Shown here in pieces: positions 1,554 through 54,695 of a stretch of 64,000 nt of DNA. Position numbers and translations under genes: made by a program. The stretch comes from an uncultured Rickettsiales bacterium (GTDB lineage Bacteria > Pseudomonadota > Alphaproteobacteria > RF32 > CAG-239): assembly GCA_900551865.1 (NCBI GenBank), contig URXV01000008.1, positions 1,415 to 65,414 of the forward strand, read 5' to 3'. The notes below the pieces were generated by a model. It saw nothing but the letters and a program-made list of their open reading frames with translations, made no database searches and had not been told where the DNA came from. Within the stretch, counting starts at the first letter, position 1; each line of letters begins with the position of its first letter.

Positions 1554-1752
1554 AACATATCTATATTTAAATTATATTTTTCTAGACAAAACTATACCAC
1601 ATTTTTAGACTTTTTGCAAGCTTTTTACACCAGAGAGCCTGCTTTTTGCAGCTTTTGCCTCAAAAAAAGAAACCGTTTTCGGCTTCTTTTTATATTTTTT
1701 CGAAAATCCGGAAATTTCCTGGAAATATCTGTATTCAAACTATCGTTATTTC

Positions 1753-2430
1753 TTAATATGGATTTTTAGACGGGTCTGGAGATTCCAAATCGTTGCTCCA
1801 TTTAATGCGTTTGGCGCATTCATTGTCCGCTGCATTTTTAATCCGGCACAAATTGACCTCAATATCCGGTACGCCCGCCAAATTATAACAAATGTCTCCG
1901 GTTGTCGTAATAAACCGTTCCTGAGAACCTTTTTCGGCAACGTTCCTGAAAATAAAAGCGAAAACACGATGCGGATAGACCAATTGCAGCCCCATAGTCT
2001 TTAATTCCCGGTCAAGATTAGATTTTAACGTAACGCCGAAAGTGCAGTTAGTCCGCCCTGTCATATCCTGAAATACCTTAAAGCTCCCTTTACTGACTCC
2101 GATAAGCATATCGCCGTTTAAAGGCTTGAGAATGCCATCTGCCGATACAGACGGAGCCGTCGCGCCGGTTTGCTTTATTCTTTCGGCAGCCTTTTGAGCT
2201 GTATTCTCAAAGTTTCCCGTATTTTCAGCATCTTCTCGAATTTCCGGGTGGTCTCCGAACATTTCATTAAACAAAGCTTCGTTTTTATCGGTTTCGTCAA
2301 AGGACAGTCCGGCTGGGGCGGGAGCGGCGGCATCTGGTGCTTCCTCTGCATCCAGAACCTGCGCCTGCACCGGAAGTATAAGGCTGAAAGTTAAAAGCAA
2401 ACTGCAAATGCCAAAACTGAATTTACTCAT
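1753..2430 (-). CDS. Hypothetical secreted protein (Cys-containing; paralog of 2515-3282)
   Basis: Signal peptide MSKFSFGICSLLLTFSLILPVQAQ. Its C-terminal domain shares a block with the neighbouring gene (NCTFGVTLKSNLDRELKTMGLQLVYP versus GCNYMITLYNRTSINFRTFTVNLDWP). Confidence 0.6.
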   Translation of the reverse strand: MSKFSFGICSLLLTFSLILPVQAQVLDAEEAPDAAAPAPAGLSFDETDKNEALFNEMFGDHPEIREDAENTGNFENTAQKAAERIKQTGATAPSVSADGILKPLNGDMLIGVSKGSFKVFQDMTGRTNCTFGVTLKSNLDRELKTMGLQLVYPHRVFAFIFRNVAEKGSQERFITTTGDICYNLAGVPDIEVNLCRIKNAADNECAKRIKWSNDLESPDPSKNPY

Positions 2431-2514
2431 TTTTCATCTCTCCTTTAAAATTCGGGCAGCCTTCTGTTTCGAAAACCGCCCGTATCCTGCTGTGATATCC
2501 GATAATGGCTTTTT

Positions 2515-3282
2515 CTAATAGATGTTTGTCAGCGTCTTGTCAGATGTTCCCATATTGTCGACAATTTTGCCGATAATCATATCAATGTCCGAAAGTTCGC
2601 GGCTTTCTGCCGATTCGCTCATTGCGGCTTCTTCAGTTGCCGAAATGCGTTTAAACTCGCCGAAATATTCCGGATTCTTCGTGCTGACAAATTGGAATAA
2701 ATCCGTGCAATCGCTTTTATCCGCGCTCATTCCAAAACTGCCGATGGTTTCCGTATTGCGTGCGATATCGCACGGCGTTACCGTGTAATGCGCATCGCTT
2801 AACATCAGATAACATTTTTCATTATCCATATAAGACCGCAGGGAAATCTGTTTATCGGCACCGAAAGCGTTCACCGTTACCGATGTTTGTACTGGTTTTG
2901 AAACAGTTTCTTTGCTAAACAGCGATTTCTGCTTCTCTGCCTCTTCAACGCCCAGCAAGGACTCGACATAACGGTCAAATTTAAAACGCTCGTCGACGAC
3001 ATCCGGCCAGTCAAGGTTTACGGTAAATGTTCTGAAGTTAATAGAAGTTCTGTTGTATAGGGTAATCATATAATTGCACCCTTTGACAACGCCGTCTTCC
3101 AGAACCGGATCAATGTCATGAATCTTAAAAATGACGGCATCAGGCCTGGTAGACGGTTCGCCGGATTTTGCCGTGGTCTTCGCCGCCGGTGCCGGAGCTT
3201 TTTCTGCAGCCTGAAGCGCTGTCGGCGCCGCCATAACAGCCCCTAAAAGGAAAACAGCCAGAAACTTTATTGATTTTTTCAT
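2515..3282 (-). CDS. Hypothetical secreted protein (Cys-containing; paralog of 1753-2430)
   Basis: Signal peptide MKKSIKFLAVFLLGAVMAAPTALQAA. Shares the conserved block and several Cys with the upstream-encoded paralog. Confidence 0.6.
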   Translation of the reverse strand: MKKSIKFLAVFLLGAVMAAPTALQAAEKAPAPAAKTTAKSGEPSTRPDAVIFKIHDIDPVLEDGVVKGCNYMITLYNRTSINFRTFTVNLDWPDVVDERFKFDRYVESLLGVEEAEKQKSLFSKETVSKPVQTSVTVNAFGADKQISLRSYMDNEKCYLMLSDAHYTVTPCDIARNTETIGSFGMSADKSDCTDLFQFVSTKNPEYFGEFKRISATEEAAMSESAESRELSDIDMIIGKIVDNMGTSDKTLTNIY

Positions 3283-3391
3283 TTTAAAACCTCATAACTT
3301 CTTATGTATGACTGTATCATACGCACAGAGTGTTTAATTTTTATTAATTGCGTCGAAAAAAATAACAGCGCAAAATTTACTCGTCAGGCTG

Positions 3392-4354: not shown

Positions 4355-6175
4355 ATGAAACGGCAAACTACGGGAATTTTTAAACATATGTTAAAAGCGA
4401 GCTACATTATCACCCTGTTAAGCGGGATAGGGATATTCAATTCCTGCACCGGCAATTTTATTAATATGCCCGAATATCAGCAGGAGCAGGCATATCTTTT
4501 GCAAAAGGATACTGCATACGGCAATTATTTAGCCGGCAGAGTTGCCCATATACGGCAAGATTATGATAATGCGGCGCGTTATTATGTACGGACGATAGAA
4601 AAGGGAATGGTTAATGAAGATTTGCTCGGTAAAACATATATCATTCTGGCATCACAGGGGAAAATTGACCAAGCGGTAAAATATGCCGGAATAGCCCGCA
4701 AAAATGGGGATAAAAACAATTTTATCGACGTTATTAATGCCGTTTATGCGTTTAAGCATGGTGATTATAAGTCTTCCCGAGTTGCTTTGAACAGCATAAA
4801 TGAAAAAACATACAAAAAACTGATTGCCCCGTTGTTCAACGCATGGAGTTATGTCGGAGAAAATAATTACGAACAGGCTGTAACAGAGCTGCAGAAACTG
4901 TCAGGCATGGAAGAAATGAAAACAGTCTATAGCCTGCATAGCGGTCTGATTTCCGAATATTTCGGTAAAATGAAAGATGCGCAAAAATATTATGATATCG
5001 TCATTAATGACAAAGCGAATGATATGTCGTTCCGGGCGCTGCAGATTATTTCAAATTTTCTGGTTCGCAACGGAGAAAAAGAAAAAGCACTTAATTTGGT
5101 AGCCAAATATTATGGTTCCAGCAATATAAAGGAAATGCTTGCCAGCCTTCGGGAAAAAATAAGCCAGGGCAACGCGGCATCTCCCCGGCTGGTAAATACT
5201 CCTGACGAAGGGGCGGGGGAAGTCTTTTTGGAAATTGCCCTGTTATTCAAATCTGTGCCGGTTGGTCACGATTATGCCCAGATGTATATGGCTGTGTCAG
5301 AATATTTTAATCCCGACAATGATATCGCCAAAATAGCTATGGCGGATTTGTTTGAAGAGCGGTTGATGCTTAATGATGCCAATAAGTATTACGATTCGAT
5401 TGGTAAAAAATCAGAGATGTATTATCCGGCGCAAATGAAAAAAGCCAATAATTTGTCTGCCGAGAAAAAATACAGCGAGGCGATAAAAGTATTAAAACGG
5501 CTGCTTCGGGAAAATCCTGGTAATTTTCAGGTATTGTTTAATCTGGGCGATGTTTTGCGTGTAAGCAATAATCAGCCGGATGCTATTAAATATTACAATA
5601 AAGCCATAAATTCCATATTTTATGAGAGTGAAAAATATTGGCCGGTATACTATGCGTTGGCTGTTTCTTATGATAAAAACAATGAATGGGGCAAAGCCGA
5701 AGAAAGTCTTGAAAAAGCTCTGAAATTAAGCAACCGTCATCCGCAGGTGCTCAACTATCTTGGATACAGCTGGCTTAAATATAATATGAATACGGACAAA
5801 GCCGCGGCTATGATTTTGGAAGCTTATGAAAAAGACCCGAATGATGGTGTGATAATGGATAGTCTTGGATGGGTCTATTTTAAAACCGGAGATTATGATA
5901 ACGCCATTTTATATTTGGAAAAGGCATCTGAACTTAATCCTCAAAATGCCATTATCAGTGATCATCTCGGCGATGCATACTGGTTTGGCGGGCGTAAAAA
6001 TGAAGCAGTATTTCAGTGGAAGCAGGCTTTGTCCCAAAAAGAGGAACAAGAAGAGTTAAATGCAAAACAGGTAAAAAATAAAATAGAAAACGGATTAAAA
6101 AATATAAAAAAGCTTTCAATCCAAGATGAAAAAATCAAGAAAAACCTGCATAGTCTGAATGATATAACCGAATGA
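4355..6175 (+). CDS. TPR-repeat protein, probable lipoprotein/periplasmic
   Basis: 606 aa. N-terminal hydrophobic segment ending in a lipobox-like GIFNSC. Multiple TPR-like repeats (for example GNFQVLFNLGDVLRVSNNQPDAIKYYNKAI, PQVLNYLGYSWL, GDYDNAILYLEKASELNPQNA). Confidence 0.75.
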   Translation: MKRQTTGIFKHMLKASYIITLLSGIGIFNSCTGNFINMPEYQQEQAYLLQKDTAYGNYLAGRVAHIRQDYDNAARYYVRTIEKGMVNEDLLGKTYIILASQGKIDQAVKYAGIARKNGDKNNFIDVINAVYAFKHGDYKSSRVALNSINEKTYKKLIAPLFNAWSYVGENNYEQAVTELQKLSGMEEMKTVYSLHSGLISEYFGKMKDAQKYYDIVINDKANDMSFRALQIISNFLVRNGEKEKALNLVAKYYGSSNIKEMLASLREKISQGNAASPRLVNTPDEGAGEVFLEIALLFKSVPVGHDYAQMYMAVSEYFNPDNDIAKIAMADLFEERLMLNDANKYYDSIGKKSEMYYPAQMKKANNLSAEKKYSEAIKVLKRLLRENPGNFQVLFNLGDVLRVSNNQPDAIKYYNKAINSIFYESEKYWPVYYALAVSYDKNNEWGKAEESLEKALKLSNRHPQVLNYLGYSWLKYNMNTDKAAAMILEAYEKDPNDGVIMDSLGWVYFKTGDYDNAILYLEKASELNPQNAIISDHLGDAYWFGGRKNEAVFQWKQALSQKEEQEELNAKQVKNKIENGLKNIKKLSIQDEKIKKNLHSLNDITE

Positions 6176-6179
6176 TTCC

Positions 6180-6218
6180 AGAATTGCCGCAAATATACAA
6201 AATATTTGCGGCAATTCT
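6180..6218. terminator. Bidirectional terminator hairpin between convergent TPR gene and glmM
   Basis: Perfect 16-17 bp inverted repeat (a)gaattgccgcaaatat / atatttgcggcaattc(t) with a 5-nt loop, located between two convergent stops. Confidence 0.6.
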
Positions 6219-6289
6219 CTGATTATCATAAATAACGCTCATGTTTATAGAAGAAGAGTATTGGTTGCAAGTATAAGCGTGGGATAAAA

Positions 6290-7654
6290 TTATTTTTGAT
6301 ATTGTAAAATAAGCTGTTTTAAATGTTTTGCAAGTCTGGCAACCGTTTGTTCGTCCTTTCCTTCAATCCGGAGTTTGATAACCGGTTCGGTGCCGGATTT
6401 TCTCGCAATCAAATTGCTGTTTTCGCCCAAAACTTTCTTTGCGTCATTTAAGGCTGTTTGGACATCATCATGTTCAAGGCTTTGCTGCATAAATTCTTTG
6501 GTTGAAAACCGGATATTTTCGATTAAACAGGGATAGGGGGAGAATATCGGAAAAATTTCATTCATAGGCTTGGCTGCTTCCAAATAGGCCAAAGCCAAAA
6601 TAATGGCTACGGCCAAAGCGTCGCCGCTTTTTGCGTATTGTGAAAGAACAATATGTCCCACAGGTTCTCCGCCTAGCGAGGAAAACTTTTCTTTCATTAA
6701 ATCAATAACGTATCTTTCTCCGACCTTGCTTTGAAAATAAATAAAACCGTTTTTGCGCAAATATTCCCCCAGTCCCAGATTGGACCATTCCGTACTGACG
6801 ACAGTATTATTGTTGAGTTGTCCGTGTGCTTTAAGATATTGTGCCAAAAAACAGAGCAGCTGGTCTCCGTCAATAACTGCTCCCGTATTGTCGACAAGAA
6901 TAATCCGGTCACCATCCCCGTCAACGGCAATGCCAAAATGGGCATGGGCATCTTTAACGGTTTGAGCCAGCTGTTTTGTGTGCTGGGAACCGCAGTTTTG
7001 ATTAATATTATATCCGTCCGGTTGATTATTGATTGAGATAACGCCGGCACCCAAATCCTTGAATGTCTGGGGAAGAATATAAGAGTAAGCGCCGTTTGCA
7101 CAGTCAATAACCACCCGGAGCCCTTGCAGGGCTTTATAATTAGGCGCAATTTTGCGCATGCTTTCGATATAATCTTCAATTATTTCGTCTTTTTTTAAAA
7201 TTTTTCCGAAACGCGTCTGTTTTAATACTGGCGGTGTTTCTTCGGCTAAACGACGCTGTTCTAAGAGCTTTTCAATTTTTGCATAAAAGTCGTCGGAAAA
7301 TTTGTCGCCGCTCTGGTCGATAAGCTTTATGCCGTTGTCTTGATAAGGGTTATGTGATGCCGTAATCATTAAAGACATATCCACGCCGAGTTCCGGTGTT
7401 TTCAATGTAACCAATGGTGTAGGAACAATGCCCAGCAAAATAACGTCAATTCCGTTTGCCGTAAACCCGGCGCTTAGTGCTGCTTCAATCATATCTCCGG
7501 ATATGCGTGTATCTTTGCCAATGGCTATTTTCTTTTTATCCGTGCACACCGTTTGGCTTAATATTTCTGCCAGTTTAAATGCAAAGTCCGCCGTCATCGG
7601 ATAGAAACCGGCAACGCCTCTGACACCGTCCGTGCCGAATAATTTATTTGTCAT
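6290..7654 (-). CDS. glmM: Phosphoglucosamine mutase
   Basis: N-terminus LFGTDGVRG, active-site serine loop TASHNPYQDNGIK, Mg-binding GIAVDGDGDR, and C-terminal RKSGTEPVIKLRIEG. Confidence 0.95.
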   Translation of the reverse strand: MTNKLFGTDGVRGVAGFYPMTADFAFKLAEILSQTVCTDKKKIAIGKDTRISGDMIEAALSAGFTANGIDVILLGIVPTPLVTLKTPELGVDMSLMITASHNPYQDNGIKLIDQSGDKFSDDFYAKIEKLLEQRRLAEETPPVLKQTRFGKILKKDEIIEDYIESMRKIAPNYKALQGLRVVIDCANGAYSYILPQTFKDLGAGVISINNQPDGYNINQNCGSQHTKQLAQTVKDAHAHFGIAVDGDGDRIILVDNTGAVIDGDQLLCFLAQYLKAHGQLNNNTVVSTEWSNLGLGEYLRKNGFIYFQSKVGERYVIDLMKEKFSSLGGEPVGHIVLSQYAKSGDALAVAIILALAYLEAAKPMNEIFPIFSPYPCLIENIRFSTKEFMQQSLEHDDVQTALNDAKKVLGENSNLIARKSGTEPVIKLRIEGKDEQTVARLAKHLKQLILQYQK

Positions 7655-49625: not shown

Positions 49626-49651
49626 GAACAGTCCTGTTGAAGCGAATTGTT

Positions 49652-49690
49652 AAAAGCAGGTGCGACCGCACCTGCTTTTATTTATGTTTT
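49652..49690 (+). terminator. Rho-independent terminator after the tolC / small-ORF unit
   Basis: aaaagcaggt / acctgctttt stem with a gcgaccgc loop, followed by a T-rich tract. Confidence 0.65.
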
Positions 49691-49749: not shown

Positions 49750-50466
49750 TCACCGGCAGACTCTTGCCACAGTCAAAGCGTCAACAGATTTTGCTCCTGC
49801 TTTTTTTAAGGCTTTGGCGCATTCTTTCAGGGTTGAGCCTGTTGTAAACACGTCATCAATAAGAACAATGCGCTTTCCTTTGATGTTTTCGGGATGGGCA
49901 ACTTCAAAGGCATTTCGAACGTTTTTCAGCCGTTGTTTGCCGCTGCAATGAACCTGCGGCAGCGTGTGGCGGGTTTTCTTCAGCGATTTGTAATCGGCAG
50001 GAATACCGCATAATTTGGATAAGCCGGCGCTTAAAACGGCAGATTGATTATATTTTCTTTTAAACATGCGGGTATAATGCAACGGAACAGGAATAATCAG
50101 GTCGACTCCGGTATTAAAAATATCTTTTCCAGCCATATACAGCCACCGCGCCAATAACATTTTATTTTCTACATGATCAAAAAACTTAAAGTCCAAAATT
50201 AATTTTTTTGAATGGTCATTGTATTCAACGGCCGCCCGGCACAGACGAAAAGGAGTTCTTTTACTGAGGCATTCCGCACAGTAATAAGTGCCGTTAACCG
50301 TTTCGGGAAAAGGTCTGCCGCATTTCTTGCAGTAAGGCCTGCTGATAAAGTCGATTTTAGTAAAACAGTCGGAACATAAGCTATTATCGGAGTGAATTTC
50401 TTTTCCGCACAATAAACAACGCGGCGGCAGCAAGATATCTAACAGTAAACGCAGCCACTTCGTCAT
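49750..50466 (-). CDS. comF: ComF-family phosphoribosyltransferase-domain protein
   Basis: N-terminal double zinc ribbon (PPRCLLCG...CSDC...CKKCGRPF...YCAEC). C-terminal PRTase motif RIVLIDDVFTTGSTL. Confidence 0.8.
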   Translation of the reverse strand: MTKWLRLLLDILLPPRCLLCGKEIHSDNSLCSDCFTKIDFISRPYCKKCGRPFPETVNGTYYCAECLSKRTPFRLCRAAVEYNDHSKKLILDFKFFDHVENKMLLARWLYMAGKDIFNTGVDLIIPVPLHYTRMFKRKYNQSAVLSAGLSKLCGIPADYKSLKKTRHTLPQVHCSGKQRLKNVRNAFEVAHPENIKGKRIVLIDDVFTTGSTLKECAKALKKAGAKSVDALTVARVCR

Positions 50467-51329
50467 AACTGCATAAGTTCATTTTTTAGCAAATTGATAT
50501 CGTCGACGACAATCATGCCGGCTTTCTGGAGAATGCTTTTTTTATCCTCGGCCGTAGTTATGCCGCGGCATAAAATTTCCGGAGCCAGGCCTTTGTTATC
50601 GGACAAAGGCGTCGGGTCATCAAGAATTAGGGCAATTATCGGCTTTTTCTTATTTTGCGCCATATAAAATTCTGCCGCTTCAATTTCATAATTTCCGCCG
50701 ATTCCACCAATTAAGATAATTGCTTTGGTATCCTCATCGTTGTTGAACTGTTTGATTATTTCAACAAAACTCGTTCCCAGAATAACATCATCGCCCAAAC
50801 CAATAACGGTAGATTCGCCAAATCCGGCTTTGTTTATTTCGAGAACAACTTCATAAGTCAAAGTTGACGAACGGGATATGATGCCAATATTGCCGCCTTT
50901 ATGGATACTGTCGGGAAAAATACCCATGTATGCTTCCTGTGGTGTAATAACCCCCGGCGTATTGGGGCCGATAAGAATGGTAGGTGATTGCTGGAGCTCA
51001 TGTTTTATCTCCATCATATCGCTGACGGGAATACCGGAAGTAATCACAACGACCAGTTTTAATCCGGCGTGGATAGCCTCCAAAATAGCGGTTTTGGCAT
51101 ATTTTGCCGGCACAAACACAATCGACGCCTCAGCACCGGTTTTGTCTTTCGCCTCTTGTACGGTTCCGAACAAGGGAACGCCCAGATAAGAGCTTTCATT
51201 CTTATTCGGAACAACGCCTGCCACAATTTGTGTGCCATACTTCATCGCCCTTTGAATGTGGAAAGAAGCCTGTGTTCCGGTAATGCCCTGAACCATTATT
51301 TTCGTGTTTTTGCTAACGAGTACCGCCAT
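50463..51329 (-). CDS. Succinyl-CoA synthetase alpha-subunit homolog lacking the catalytic histidine
   Basis: Colinear with SucD: NTKIMVQGITGTQ, GPNTPGVITP, ISRSSTLTYE. The GHAGA phosphohistidine loop reads KGLAPEIL (Leu248, codon 50586-50588), and GEIGG reads GGIGG. Confidence 0.8.
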   Translation of the reverse strand: MAVLVSKNTKIMVQGITGTQASFHIQRAMKYGTQIVAGVVPNKNESSYLGVPLFGTVQEAKDKTGAEASIVFVPAKYAKTAILEAIHAGLKLVVVITSGIPVSDMMEIKHELQQSPTILIGPNTPGVITPQEAYMGIFPDSIHKGGNIGIISRSSTLTYEVVLEINKAGFGESTVIGLGDDVILGTSFVEIIKQFNNDEDTKAIILIGGIGGNYEIEAAEFYMAQNKKKPIIALILDDPTPLSDNKGLAPEILCRGITTAEDKKSILQKAGMIVVDDINLLKNELMQL

Positions 51330-52537
51330 TACAAATCCTCCTCAATAGCACTTTTTAAGAGTGTAAGTCCTTCAAGCGTATCAGAAGCAATAGACAAAGG
51401 CAGTCCGGATTTTTGTAAAATTTCAGTAGCCTCGTTTTTATTTGTCCCTTCAAAACGTACAACCAGAGGAATGTTAAGCCCTAAATCGTTTGCAACGGTA
51501 ATTATGCCGTCCGCAATAAGATTGCAGCGTAAAAAACCGCCGAGAATGTTTATAAGGATGCCGTCAACTTTGGGATTTGTCATAATAAGTTTTATACTTG
51601 CGGCGATTTTATCCCTGTCAACGCCGCCTTTTAAATTAAGAAAACATGCTGTTTCCATGCCCATTTTTTGAGCTTGATTGATTGTACTTAATGCGAGTCC
51701 GTCGCCATTGACGATGATACCTATGCCGCTTTCCAGTTCTTTATATTGAAAACCGTATTTTGCAGCAGTCAACTCTCTTTCTTCCGTTTCAGAATCGTCC
51801 GACATCTTTACAATATCCGGATGTCTGTATAAAGCATTGCCGTCAAAGATGATTTTGGCATCGAGTGCCCAGATGTCCCCGTTCTTGCTGATGCCAATCG
51901 GATTAATCTCAAGCATGGTCGCGTCATAACTGTAAAATACTTTCAGCATTCTGTTCAAAAACGCTTTTAAACCGGTTGTATTAAGCTGGGTTTGCATAAA
52001 ATCCGTAATTAAGGATAACTGCTCATGTTTTATTTCCTTCTGCAGCCCCAGATTTATTTTTAATAATTTGTCAGGATGGTCAATAGCCAGTTTGACAATG
52101 TCGTCATCATCTTTCTCTGTAACCGGCGCTATCAACAGGACAGTTGATGCTGCTACCCAGTCCACAACAAGCCCCAGATAAAATTTTTTCACGGTTTTTA
52201 TAAATTCTTCAACATACACTCTGCTGACAAGTCGTCCCTTGGCGCCGGTTTGGTTCGTAACCAAAAGGTTTTCCAACATTTCATCGGCATTTTCATAAAC
52301 CTCATCCAAAGTTTTGGAAAGTCTGATTCCTCCCTTGCGTCCGGCTCTCTTGTCTGAAAACTTCCCTACATCACGGGAACCGGCCTGAATTTGTGCTTTA
52401 ACAACCCACGGACCGAACTCTGATATCTTTTCTGCTGCACTTTTGGCTTCCGCAGGCGTATACGCCACCAAACCGTATGGAACGTTAATTCCGGCTTTCT
52501 TAAAAATCTTTTTGGCCTGATATTCGTGAATATTCAT
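51329..52537 (-). CDS. Succinyl-CoA synthetase beta-subunit (ATP-grasp) homolog, divergent
   Basis: MNIHEYQAKKIF, GPWVVKAQ, MLEINP, NGDGLAL and NILGGFLRCNLIADGI are colinear with SucC. There is an insertion in the glycine-rich loop (AGSRDVGKFSDKRAGRKGG). TAATG stop/start overlap with the alpha homolog. Confidence 0.8.
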   Translation of the reverse strand: MNIHEYQAKKIFKKAGINVPYGLVAYTPAEAKSAAEKISEFGPWVVKAQIQAGSRDVGKFSDKRAGRKGGIRLSKTLDEVYENADEMLENLLVTNQTGAKGRLVSRVYVEEFIKTVKKFYLGLVVDWVAASTVLLIAPVTEKDDDDIVKLAIDHPDKLLKINLGLQKEIKHEQLSLITDFMQTQLNTTGLKAFLNRMLKVFYSYDATMLEINPIGISKNGDIWALDAKIIFDGNALYRHPDIVKMSDDSETEERELTAAKYGFQYKELESGIGIIVNGDGLALSTINQAQKMGMETACFLNLKGGVDRDKIAASIKLIMTNPKVDGILINILGGFLRCNLIADGIITVANDLGLNIPLVVRFEGTNKNEATEILQKSGLPLSIASDTLEGLTLLKSAIEEDL

Positions 52538-52946
52538 TCTGTCCCTTTAGTGCTTGTGCGGCATAATATTTAATCTTGTCTACCATTGAAAGCATACCGC
52601 TGCGCCGATTGGGCGTAATATGCTCTCTCAATCCCATTTTATCAAAAATTTCTTCAACATCAATATCTAAAATTTCTTGTGCAGACTTATCTTTAAATAT
52701 TTCCAGAACGACGGCAATAATTCCGCGGACGATAATGGCATCGCTGTCACCTTCAAAACTGATGCCGTTTTCACTATAATGAGGGATAATCCAAACCTGG
52801 GATTGGCAGCCGGGAACTTTCCATTCGTCTTTTTTTTGCTCATCGCTGAAACGGGGAAGCTGGTTGCCAAGTTCTATAAGATATTTATAGCGGTCTTCCC
52901 AGCCATCCAAAAATGAAAAATCGTCAATTAAGCTTTCAATACTCAT
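52500..52946 (-). CDS. sufE: Cysteine desulfuration protein SufE
   Basis: SufE/CsdE pattern: FLDGWEDRYKYLIELGNQLP...VPGCQSQVWI (active-site Cys). The 3' end overlaps the sucC-like start by 38 nt. Confidence 0.85.
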   Translation of the reverse strand: MSIESLIDDFSFLDGWEDRYKYLIELGNQLPRFSDEQKKDEWKVPGCQSQVWIIPHYSENGISFEGDSDAIIVRGIIAVVLEIFKDKSAQEILDIDVEEIFDKMGLREHITPNRRSGMLSMVDKIKYYAAQALKGQNEYSRISGQKDF

Positions 52947-52961
52947 CTGCCGTATCCTTTG

Positions 52962-53387
52962 CTAAATCATTTCCAACATCATTCTGGCATCATCACTCAG
53001 TCTTTCAAGCGTCCATGCCGGTTCCCAGACAACTTCGACCTCCACTTTCCCGACTCCGGGAATTCCGGCAGTTGCATCGGCAACCTGTTGCGGTAAAATT
53101 CCGGCAACAGGGCAGCCGGGAGCAGTCAGGGACATATCTATATGCAAATTGCCGCAGTCTTCTTGATTTATTTTATAAATAAGCCCGAGGTCATAAACAT
53201 TGATTGGTATTTCGGGGTCAAATACGGTTTTTATTGCTTCTACGATATCGTACATCTTCGCTTTTGTTTGGCCAACGGCAAGTTCTTGTCCTGCGTATGC
53301 CTTATAAACAGGCAGTTCTTCAATACTCATCGCATCAAGGAGCTGTGCTTCGGTTTCGTCAATCAGTTCTTCGGTATTATCAGTCAT
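52962..53387 (-). CDS. DUF59/MIP18-family Fe-S assembly protein (SufT-like)
   Basis: IVEAIKTVFDPEIPINVYDLGLIY...MSLTAPGCPVAG is a typical DUF59 core. The ATG at 53387 is preferred. The track used a TTG at 53405. Confidence 0.8.
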   Translation of the reverse strand: MTDNTEELIDETEAQLLDAMSIEELPVYKAYAGQELAVGQTKAKMYDIVEAIKTVFDPEIPINVYDLGLIYKINQEDCGNLHIDMSLTAPGCPVAGILPQQVADATAGIPGVGKVEVEVVWEPAWTLERLSDDARMMLEMI

Positions 53388-53397
53388 CGTTTTTCTT

Positions 53398-54615
53398 TTA
53401 ACCAAAAAATTCCTTTGCTTTGTACAAAGCTTTTATAAATTCATCAATATCTTCTTTTATGGTATAAATGCCCAAAGAGGCTCTGGCAAGAGAGGTGTAT
53501 CCCAGATAATTGACCAGCGGTTCGGCACAAAAATGCCCTGTCCGGATTGCAATTCCCTCTTTTCCTAAAATAAAAGCCAAATCCTGCGGGTGTATACCAT
53601 CTATGGCGAATGAAAAAACACCGCCCTTTTCTTTTGCCGTTCCTAAAATCTTAAGCCCGTTTATTTCTGACATTCGCCTTGTTGCATAATCCGTCAGATT
53701 GTTTTCATATTCTTCAATCTCACTAAAGTCAAACTGCATAAGATAGTTTAATGAAGCACCTAAGCCGATAGCCTGTACGATAGCAGGAGTTCCGGCTTCA
53801 AAACGGGCAGGAGGGTTTGTAAAAGATGTTTTTTCATAGCTGACATGTTCAATCATATCACCGCCGTACTGATAAGGCGGCATATCGGCGAGCAAATCAT
53901 ATTTGCCGTAAAGGATGCCGATACCCGTAGGTCCGTATACCTTATGTCCGGAAAATGCCAGAAAATCACAGTTAAAATCTTTCACGTCTATTTTTTTATG
54001 TACCGCAAATTGACAGGCGTCTATTAATACCTTTGCGCCGATATTATGCGCTGCAGTACAAATCTTTTTTACCGGGAAAACTGTTCCCAAAACATTAGAC
54101 ATTGCTGTAACGGCGACAATTTTGGTATTTTCATGCAGCGAGTCGGTAAATTTATTCCACGAAAAACTTCCGTCTTCTTCCAAATCAAAATAAACCAGTT
54201 TTGCGCCGGTCTTGGCTGCCCATTGCTGCCACGTTACCAGATTGGCATGATGCTCGGCACGGGAGAGGAGAATTTCGTCGCCCGGTTTTAATGTCATTGC
54301 CCCGAAAGTCGCTGCAACCAAGTTAATTCCTTCCGTTGCGCTGCGGGTAAAAATAATTTCTTCAGGTTTTTCCGCATTAATGAAACGTGCGGCAGATTTT
54401 CTGGCATCTTCATAATTCTCGGTTGCTTTTTCTGAAAGCCAGTAGCTTCCGCGGTGAACGTTTGCATATTCGTCTAAATACGCCTTTCGGATTTCTTCCA
54501 GCATCACTAATGGCTTTTGCGCCGATGCTGCCGTGTCCAGATATGTATTGCGTTTCCCTTCTATCAGTCTGTCCAGAATGGGAAAATCTTTTCTGATTTT
54601 ATATGCATCAAACAT
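53398..54615 (-). CDS. sufS: Cysteine desulfurase SufS (class V aminotransferase, group II)
   Basis: IRKDFPIL, YLDTAASAQKP, PLP-lysine FSGHKVYGPTGIGILYG, and active-site RTGHFCAEP. Start moved to ATG 54615 (MFDAYK...). Confidence 0.9.
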   Translation of the reverse strand: MFDAYKIRKDFPILDRLIEGKRNTYLDTAASAQKPLVMLEEIRKAYLDEYANVHRGSYWLSEKATENYEDARKSAARFINAEKPEEIIFTRSATEGINLVAATFGAMTLKPGDEILLSRAEHHANLVTWQQWAAKTGAKLVYFDLEEDGSFSWNKFTDSLHENTKIVAVTAMSNVLGTVFPVKKICTAAHNIGAKVLIDACQFAVHKKIDVKDFNCDFLAFSGHKVYGPTGIGILYGKYDLLADMPPYQYGGDMIEHVSYEKTSFTNPPARFEAGTPAIVQAIGLGASLNYLMQFDFSEIEEYENNLTDYATRRMSEINGLKILGTAKEKGGVFSFAIDGIHPQDLAFILGKEGIAIRTGHFCAEPLVNYLGYTSLARASLGIYTIKEDIDEFIKALYKAKEFFG

Positions 54616-54695
54616 GTTATTACCCCAAAAAATTAGAGATAAGATAAATCCTATCTCTAATTTTTTCAACCTCAAAACTATTTAAAACGAACTAA

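Follow-up and report, generated by a model that had tools for sequence, protein, structure and literature searches.

A pair of genes related to those of succinyl-CoA synthetase (SCS; CoA, coenzyme A), designated here as sucC' and sucD', was analyzed in a 64,000-nucleotide stretch of DNA (the window) from an uncultured Rickettsiales bacterium (GenBank assembly GCA_900551865.1; contig URXV01000008.1, forward-strand positions 1,415–65,414; GTDB lineage Pseudomonadota, Alphaproteobacteria, RF32, CAG-239). The pair lies in an unbroken chain of six genes, sufS, DUF59/sufT, sufE, sucC', sucD', and comF, and all six open reading frames (ORFs) could be found on the minus strand (Table 1), as an earlier note on this DNA had described. 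The full-length ORFs and the three junctions mentioned there were also present: the last 38 nt of sufE overlap the start of sucC', a TAATG joins sucC' to sucD', and an ATGA joins sucD' to comF. The analysis revealed an intact alpha/beta pair that descended from SCS and is held under purifying selection, in which, as read from the alignments, the two-site phosphoryl relay of the enzyme has been dismantled in both subunits.

Table 1. Features of the sucC'–sucD' locus and its surroundings, in window coordinates
Feature	Position	Strand	Basis or remark
sucC', beta-subunit homolog, 402 aa	51329-52537	minus	ATP-grasp PF08442 and CoA-ligase PF00549
sucD', alpha-subunit homolog, 288 aa	50463-51329	minus	CoA-binding PF02629 and CoA-ligase PF00549
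SucD' Leu248 codon CTG, site of catalytic His246-alpha	50586-50588	minus	HMMER alignment
SucD' Gly209, site of Glu208-alpha (GEIGG to GGIGG)	50703-50705	minus	alignment
SucD' Asp180-Asp181 of GLGDD (canonical GIGGDP)	50787-50792	minus	alignment
SucD' Ser155, first residue of alpha power helix (canonical Gly154)	50865-50867	minus	predicted helix 155-167
SucD' Ser98, site of Glu97-alpha (human Glu105-alpha)	51036-51038	minus	residue offset to chain 7msr_A
SucC' C298-F-L-N-L-K-G-G-V306 (canonical N-F-L-D-V-G-G-G-A)	51620-51646	minus	alignment
SucC' Asp279, first residue of beta power helix (canonical Ala266 in NGAGLA)	51701-51703	minus	predicted helix 279-291
SucC' nucleotide-phosphate loop G53-S-R-D-V-G58 (canonical GGRGKG)	52364-52381	minus	alignment
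sufE, persulfide carrier	52500-52946	minus	PF02657, 1e-44; 43% identity to E. coli SufE
DUF59/SufT-type iron-sulfur (Fe-S) assembly protein	52962-53405	minus	PF01883 and TIGR02945
sufS, type II cysteine desulfurase	53398-54675	minus	TIGR01979, 543 bits, above cut-off
ComF-family gene (double zinc ribbon and phosphoribosyltransferase)	49750-50466	minus	PF18912 and PF00156
Perfect 13-bp palindromic hairpin with T-runs	49651-49680		downstream of comF

Residues 3–276 of SucD' aligned with residues 2–274 of E. coli SucD (HMMER; 1jkj and 2nu8; E-value 5e-78), with about 50% identity over the first 203 residues, and the AlphaFold model (predicted local distance difference test, pLDDT, 90.9) matched SCS alpha chains with template-modelling (TM) scores of 0.90–0.92; the claim that the protein is colinear with SucD over its full length could thus be upheld. 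The alignment, which is ungapped around the active site, set G-L-A-P-E-I-L of SucD' opposite G-H-A-G-A-I-I of E. coli. Leu248 at the position of His246, as claimed earlier, was confirmed by this alignment and by the CTG codon, and no histidine was placed in the catalytic loop. The last histidine of SucD' is residue 143, which extends the histidine-free C-terminal part to 145 residues. The former phosphohistidine loop (residues 231–260) was the sole poorly modelled stretch (pLDDT 58–79) and the least conserved segment within the clade of related proteins (conservation 0.56–0.58). Cys254 in this loop was considered and set aside, being conserved only inside the genus.

In approximately 60 canonical SucD sequences, drawn from a wide range of bacteria and a single archaeon, the motifs GPNCPG, SRSGTLTYE, GIGGDP, IGEIGG, and MGHAGAI were almost invariant. 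SucD' differs in all five, and the differences are therefore not ordinary family variation. The replacement of the GEIGG glutamate by glycine (Gly209) and of the GPNCPG cysteine by threonine (Thr124, GPNTPG), both reported earlier, were found as described. In the succinyl-phosphate complex 7MSR, the mutated position is Glu105-alpha of the human enzyme, which corresponds to Glu97-alpha by alignment offset. SucD' scored below the NCBIfam cut-offs of TIGR01019 (333.8 vs 353.2) and NF004230 (331.6 vs 336). Among 17 alpha residues that we take to be CoA contacts in the E. coli structure, 14 are kept. The exchange of Cys123 for threonine was rejected as a decisive inactivating change, the best PDB sequence match being the E. 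coli C123-alpha-T mutant (2nu8). The threonine engineered in 2nu8 is the same residue that has been fixed naturally in the clade. The C123-alpha-T mutant of E. coli SCS reportedly retains activity.

SucC' shares 35% identity with E. coli SucC, and its AlphaFold model (pLDDT 86) matched SCS beta chains with TM scores of 0.75–0.82. It also scored below the NCBIfam cut-offs (NF001913, 351.6 vs 370; TIGR01016, 331 vs 375.6). By sequence, its nucleotide site appears mixed: Lys46, Glu99, Asn199, and Asp213 are retained, while the nucleotide-phosphate loop reads GSRDVG, with positions 56 and 57 varying within the clade, and Glu107-beta is replaced by lysine. Of the two glutamates that help the canonical histidine to gain and lose its phosphoryl group, Glu197-beta is kept (in LEINP) and Glu208-alpha is lost. 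Further changes were NIFGGI to NILGGF and, in most members, RCD to RCN. The site of Asp279 carries D, S, or N across the clade, and Cys298 and Lys303 were present in all clade sequences examined. Conservation within the protein is highest in the beta C-terminal domain, with a mean column conservation of 0.88–0.93 against 0.72–0.82 in canonical SucC, which is a more diverse set. Cys298 was tried as a catalytic or sulfur-accepting cysteine and rejected, since the model puts it in the middle of a strand (296–301). With respect to the beta subunit, the earlier note was right that the ATP-grasp outline is kept, whereas the insertion that it saw in the glycine-rich loop is extra only in comparison with E. 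coli. The same 10-residue insert (GRGKGKFKE..AG..GGVR) could be found in canonical SucC of Rickettsiaceae and Hyphomicrobiales-type genomes (L063, L085, L097, and L098), so it was dropped as a novel feature; from these sequences, it is ancestral to alphaproteobacterial and mitochondrial SucC. The real oddity of the loop is the change from GGRGKG to GSRDVG.

The ATP and CoA sites of this enzyme family lie approximately 30 Å apart, and a carrier residue is required. In the superfamily, a histidine on a swinging loop of small residues carries the phosphoryl group, two power helices hold phosphate or sulfate at their Gly/Ala tips, and the need for a carrier residue between the separated ATP and CoA sites has been described (PMC11494057). 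The canonical tips read S-G154-T in alpha and G-A266-G in beta. In the models of SucD' and SucC', Ser155 and Asp279 are predicted as the first residues of helices 155–167 and 279–291. Serine, aspartate, and asparagine are typical helix N-cap residues, and the models suggest that such cap side chains would now stand in place of the phosphate. The conclusion of the earlier note that the pair cannot work by the canonical phosphohistidine mechanism is thus reinforced, as Glu208-alpha, Glu97-alpha, and both helix tips are likewise gone and the beta nucleotide loop has been partly lost.

Compared with canonical SucCD (EC 6.2.1.5; E. coli structures 1SCU, 2SCU, and 1CQI), the pair retains the gene order, the TAATG junction, the domains, and the fold (TM 0.91 for SucD' and approximately 0.78 for SucC'), together with the CoA-domain motifs, beta Lys46, Glu197, Asn199, and Asp213, and the glycine-rich-loop insert of alphaproteobacterial and mitochondrial SucC. 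Unlike canonical SucCD, it has no phosphohistidine, Glu208-alpha, or Glu97-alpha; side chains cap the two power-helix tips; different motifs have become fixed in place of GIGGDP, NFLDVGGGA, and NIFGGI; Glu107-beta is lysine; the proteins fall under the NCBIfam cut-offs; and the genes lie between sufE and comF rather than by mdh or sucAB. Such a pattern of substitution looks like remodelling under selection, not decay.

The conservation of these features was evaluated across the genus and the order. In the bacterium's own genome (1.3 Mb, 76% complete), sucD' is the only SucD-like gene, which also answers the question of a canonical sucCD elsewhere in that genome. No second canonical sucCD or ACD-type paralog was detected there or in any of 24 genomes from other species of the genus, and the idea that such a paralog supplies the histidine in trans was rejected on that ground. 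Each of the 24 genomes carried exactly one SucD' ortholog (59–98% identity), in every case without the histidine. Among the 120 nearest proteins in a collection of 5.8 billion, the His246 column held L in 92 and I, V, F, M, Y, or S in the others; GPNTPG and G(L/M)GDD were present in all and SRSSTLTYE in nearly all. A GHAGA loop in close relatives would have pointed to a strain-specific lesion, and the histidine was retained in none of these 24 genomes and 120 proteins. The close relatives include metagenome-assembled genomes (MAGs) of human-gut, deer-gut, and rumen origin, such as 'Acetobacter sp. 46_36' (98% identity).

At the level of the order, one SucC' was present in 120 of 121 genomes (19 genera in two families) with 48–57% identity, compared to only 35–41% between SucC' and canonical SucC. 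In other genera, the alpha loop read KMGYAGDI in all 14 loci inspected, with tyrosine for the histidine and aspartate for the alanine. The Glu208-alpha site, Gly in this genome, carries Q, K, R, or A in other genera; the Glu97-alpha site, Ser in this genome, is Asp or Tyr elsewhere in the clade; and the Gly154-alpha site is Ser in every clade sequence read. Between genera with approximately 50% protein identity, the motifs GLGDD, NGDG, CFLN(L/V)KGGV, NILGGF, and RCN show little or no variation. Judging from these sequences, the order's ancestor likely exchanged the loop His for Tyr, and the genus later exchanged this Tyr for Phe, Leu, or Ile.

Pairwise ratios of nonsynonymous to synonymous substitution rates (dN/dS, Nei-Gojobori method) were 0.10 for alpha and 0.035 for beta, similar to those of the neighbouring suf genes (0.11 for sufE and 0.07 for sufS) and to 0.10 for comF, with the caveat that dS is approximately 1.1–1.4 and synonymous sites are close to saturation. 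The earlier note had offered two explanations, a conserved pseudoenzyme or a very recent inactivation. Order-wide conservation and low dN/dS lend support to the former; the latter is refuted by the missing histidine in all sampled species of the genus, the tyrosine in 14 loci of other genera, and a dN/dS of 0.04–0.10. An in-frame TAA in SucC' could be seen in one genus genome (L131, G147:C31:115812-117017), which is 1 of 120 genomes of the order. The sole order genome without SucC' (G057) was considered as a natural knockout and discarded; it also has no sufE and comF, and since the whole block is missing or unassembled, it is uninformative.

Phylogenetic analysis placed SucC'D' in a monophyletic clade (support 1.0) with a stem of 0.52 substitutions per site and a root-to-tip distance of 2.21, compared to 1.47 for canonical sequences. 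The clade lies on a long branch outside all canonical bacterial sequences included, and vertical descent and transfer cannot be told apart from this tree. A profile search of 1.84 billion cluster representatives gave only approximately four clade-type clusters; the family is narrow. Five full-length SucD-like representatives outside the clade (P0165, P0166, P0172, P0237, and P0255) are also without the histidine, with loops such as FSQNGAL, SDYTGSS, ISYAGTV, and MGNIGAI. Loss of the catalytic histidine may have occurred in several independent events, as these sequences suggest.

The metabolic context was examined in the same genomes. GltA, SdhA, SdhB, SucA, and SucB of E. coli gave no match in the bacterium's own genome. 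Family models for the E1 component of 2-oxoglutarate dehydrogenase, SdhA/FrdA, DapD, and methylmalonyl-CoA mutase gave no match in 12–16 genus genomes (many of them 97–100% complete) and one genome of the second family (G025), a search that did not include 5-aminolevulinate synthase and MetA; in the same searches, these four enzymes were present in most other Alphaproteobacteria. As DapD is absent, lysine and diaminopimelate synthesis must proceed via another branch or be missing. A KorA-type model gave mostly weak matches to ORFs of approximately 1180 amino acids, with a stronger partial match in one genome, and these ORFs are probable pyruvate:ferredoxin oxidoreductases by sequence. In the loci examined, sucC'D' was located between sufE and comF, and not beside mdh or sucAB.

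The association with sufE was followed beyond the genus. Within the genus, the stretch from bamA to glgP is wholly syntenic and by itself little informative. In other genera, the core of sufE, sucC', sucD', and comF is kept with or without upstream sufT and sufS, and it is also kept in L056 (a rumen MAG, 48% identity), L049, and G025. The overlap or abutment of sufE and sucC' was observed in the genus, in the other sampled genera, and in these three genomes. In L049 (52% identity), the series sufT–amidotransferase–sufE–sucC'–sucD'–comF converges on sufB–x–sufC–sufD–sufS, so that the pair sits inside a complete suf cluster. The question of whether histidine-less orthologs adjoin suf genes in related genomes can thus be answered positively. 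No sufE was seen beside sucCD in canonical relatives. The link to Fe-S metabolism is drawn from gene context only, but that context is strong. In the same locus of L049, a class-I glutamine amidotransferase/peptidase C26 gene lies between sufT and sufE, and upstream of the suf block there is a large serine recombinase (L049 coordinates 1748-3343 and 5452-6342 cover the recombinase and amidotransferase entries).

SUF was the sole Fe-S system found in the bacterium's own genome, and SufS the sole cysteine desulfurase; E. coli IscS and SufS, used as queries, both matched only the sufS locus, and IscU, IscA, and HscB had no matches in this genome. The suf genes are scattered, with sufS, sufT, and sufE in the window, sufB on the same contig approximately 4 kb past the window end (G000 C8:69465-70868), and sufC–sufD on another contig (C11:21977-23989). 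The cysteine of the GCQSQ motif of SufE (Cys47) is intact. A-type Fe-S carriers (PF01521: IscA, SufA, and ErpA) and the glutathione synthetase GshB were absent in all sampled genus genomes (G000–G016) and in G025. In the same search, A-type carriers were found in 8 of 9 other Alphaproteobacteria in 2–3 copies each, and GshB was matched in 7 of 9, of which 5 were above the family cut-off. The absence of A-type carriers and GshB is common in anaerobes and is taken as context only.

Two further observations concern the ends of the gene chain. The listed TTG start of sufS (window 54616-54675) gives a 425-residue product with a hydrophobic 20-residue leader, while the SufS family model starts at residue 26; Met21 (MFDAYKIRKDF) is the likely true start and the TTG is probably placed too far upstream. 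The hairpin downstream of comF lies between comF on one side and a convergent 76-residue ORF and tolC-like gene on the other. By its sequence, it is likely a bidirectional terminator marking the end of the transcription unit.

Taken together, the altered sites suggest that SucC'D' very probably has a different job from SCS, and that this phosphohistidine-free SucCD derivative, which would be made together with SufE, probably still binds CoA. The reading that we tentatively prefer, at somewhat less than an even chance, is that of a non-catalytic module that binds CoA or acyl-CoA and works with SufS and SufE. According to this proposal, SucC'D' would no longer make or cleave succinyl-CoA and would survive as a ligand-binding module. 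The N-terminal Rossmann domain of the alpha subunit is kept, so it probably still binds CoA or acyl-CoA, and the module would include the highly conserved, remodelled beta C-terminal domain. With the end of sufE running into the start of sucC', and sucC' and sucD' linked by TAATG, the pair would be made in fixed proportion with SufE. Most likely, it would then serve as a sensor or adaptor partner of sulfur mobilisation by SufS and SufE, linking the supply of sulfur with the CoA or acyl-CoA status of an anaerobe in which glutathione synthetase was not detected.

SufE-family proteins are known in other partnerships; E. coli CsdE works with the E1-like CsdL/TcdA, and plant SufE is fused to BolA or NadA. 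SucC'D' resembles these in that a SufE-type persulfide carrier is tied genetically to a nucleotide-binding protein outside the SufBCD scaffold. The best precedent for how SucC'D' may act is the regulatory domain of type I/II GNAT protein acetyltransferases (Pat, PatZ, and PatA from Salmonella, E. coli, and Streptomyces), a member of the same superfamily (NDP-forming acyl-CoA synthetases) in which the catalytic histidine is likewise missing. The acyl-CoA-synthetase-like domain of Pat binds acetyl-CoA tightly and acts as a sensor of metabolic state (PMC8556138). The Pat domains are single-chain, ACD-type, fused to GNAT, and kept as a non-catalytic module. Unlike these, SucC'D' is a free two-subunit SucCD-type pair coupled to SufE and without GNAT, a domain that was not among the Pfam or NCBIfam matches of either ORF or the neighbouring genes, and its ligand binding is predicted. 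In the literature searched, no description of a SufE partner with the SCS fold was found, and nothing relevant was found on histidine-less SCS/SucCD, on a link between SufE and SucCD, or on the metabolism of the order.

Several points weigh against a non-catalytic partner of SufS and SufE. The ATP-grasp residues Lys46, Glu197, Asn199, and Asp213 of beta are retained, and polar residues (Asp, Asp, Asp/Glu, Lys, and Asn) have newly become fixed in the remodelled site, which would agree equally well with a dead site and with a new site for catalysis or for a metal. Glu97, one of the residues presumed to contact CoA, is altered. The gene comF is as constant a neighbour as sufE, and the preferred model leaves it unexplained. 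All members belong to one monophyletic order, so the association with sufE arose once, and the co-location may go back to chance in a single ancestral rearrangement, with operon inertia preserving it since.

An alternative reading, which we regard as rather unlikely, is that SucC'D' is a new enzyme and not a pseudoenzyme. The remodelled site at the CoA thiol would then have other chemistry, with or without the ATP-grasp domain, and candidates are CoA thiol or persulfide chemistry with SufE sulfur or a metal-dependent reaction at the acidic cluster. The substitutions are newly fixed and not relaxed (GLGDD, NGDG, CFLN(L/V)KGGV, NILGGF, and RCN), conservation is highest in the beta C-terminal domain (0.88–0.93), the four ATP-grasp residues are kept, and translation of the pair is coupled to that of a persulfide carrier, all of which agrees with such an enzyme. 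However, the former histidine loop is the least conserved and least confidently modelled segment, the nucleotide loop varies at two positions, and Cys298 lies within a predicted strand (296–301) and not in a loop. Moreover, ATP and CoA sites without a carrier residue lack a known way of communicating, and the gene context names no candidate substrate.

It is likewise rather unlikely that SucC'D' is a functional binding or structural protein unrelated to Fe-S or sulfur metabolism, with a ComF-related or unlinked role and a position beside sufE that is a frozen accident. Overlapping genes are hard to separate once formed, and the single origin of the association in a monophyletic clade, the constancy of comF, and the canonical relatives in which sufE is not next to sucCD are in line with this explanation. 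On the other hand, the four-gene core persists where all surroundings have changed (L049, L056, and L135–L148), it lies within a full suf cluster in L049, and the sufE/sucC' overlap or abutment is kept at only approximately 50% protein identity.

A more specific form of partnership with SufE, which we consider improbable, would be the exaptation of the former tricarboxylic acid cycle enzyme as a dedicated SufE partner that uses the bound CoA as a thiol in a sulfur or Fe-S trafficking step, with the pocket taking the persulfide sulfur of SufE or holding iron or an Fe-S cluster. The remodelled pocket at the CoA-thiol end, with its new Asp, Asp/Glu, Lys, and Asn residues, would serve this purpose, in anaerobes in which A-type carriers and glutathione synthetase were not detected and only one desulfurase was found. 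Two cysteines of the beta subunit, Cys338 and the newly fixed Cys298, could conceivably be close to that pocket.

The database annotation of the pair is succinate--CoA ligase, and its scores fall just below the NCBIfam cut-offs. With the well-conserved MGYAGDI loop of most genera, this would fit a succinyl- or acyl-CoA synthetase working by a non-canonical route, such as a tyrosine-linked intermediate or direct transfer. Nevertheless, this is very improbable: the site is L, I, V, F, or M in the bacterium's own genus, Glu208-alpha, Glu97-alpha, and both phosphate-binding helix tips are gone, the distance of approximately 30 Å between the ATP and CoA sites calls for a carrier residue, and the searches, in which 5-aminolevulinate synthase and MetA were not included, gave no producer or consumer of succinyl-CoA. 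Finally, a decaying gene, strain-specific lesion, or sequencing error, to which the missing histidine and nothing else points, is ruled out for practical purposes by the orthologs, with the same substitutions in all close relatives, the intact frames (only 1 of 120 order genomes with an in-frame stop in SucC'), and a dN/dS of 0.035–0.10.

The phosphohistidine of the textbook SCS is treated as universal, and here an entire order appears to have retained the protein pair for another purpose. The hosts are common gut and rumen bacteria, namely Alphaproteobacteria with small genomes, and with the 'succinate--CoA ligase' labels, metabolic reconstructions of these abundant, uncultured organisms would wrongly infer a tricarboxylic acid cycle step and substrate-level phosphorylation. 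The pair would be a clear example from nature of how a two-subunit enzyme can become a pseudoenzyme, or else a new enzyme, by coordinated remodelling of both subunits, along a trajectory that can be traced from His to Tyr across the order and from Tyr to Phe, Leu, or Ile in the genus. Its fixed coupling to SufE offers a testable lead to a putative accessory factor that would assist anaerobes in mobilising sulfur or assembling Fe-S clusters.

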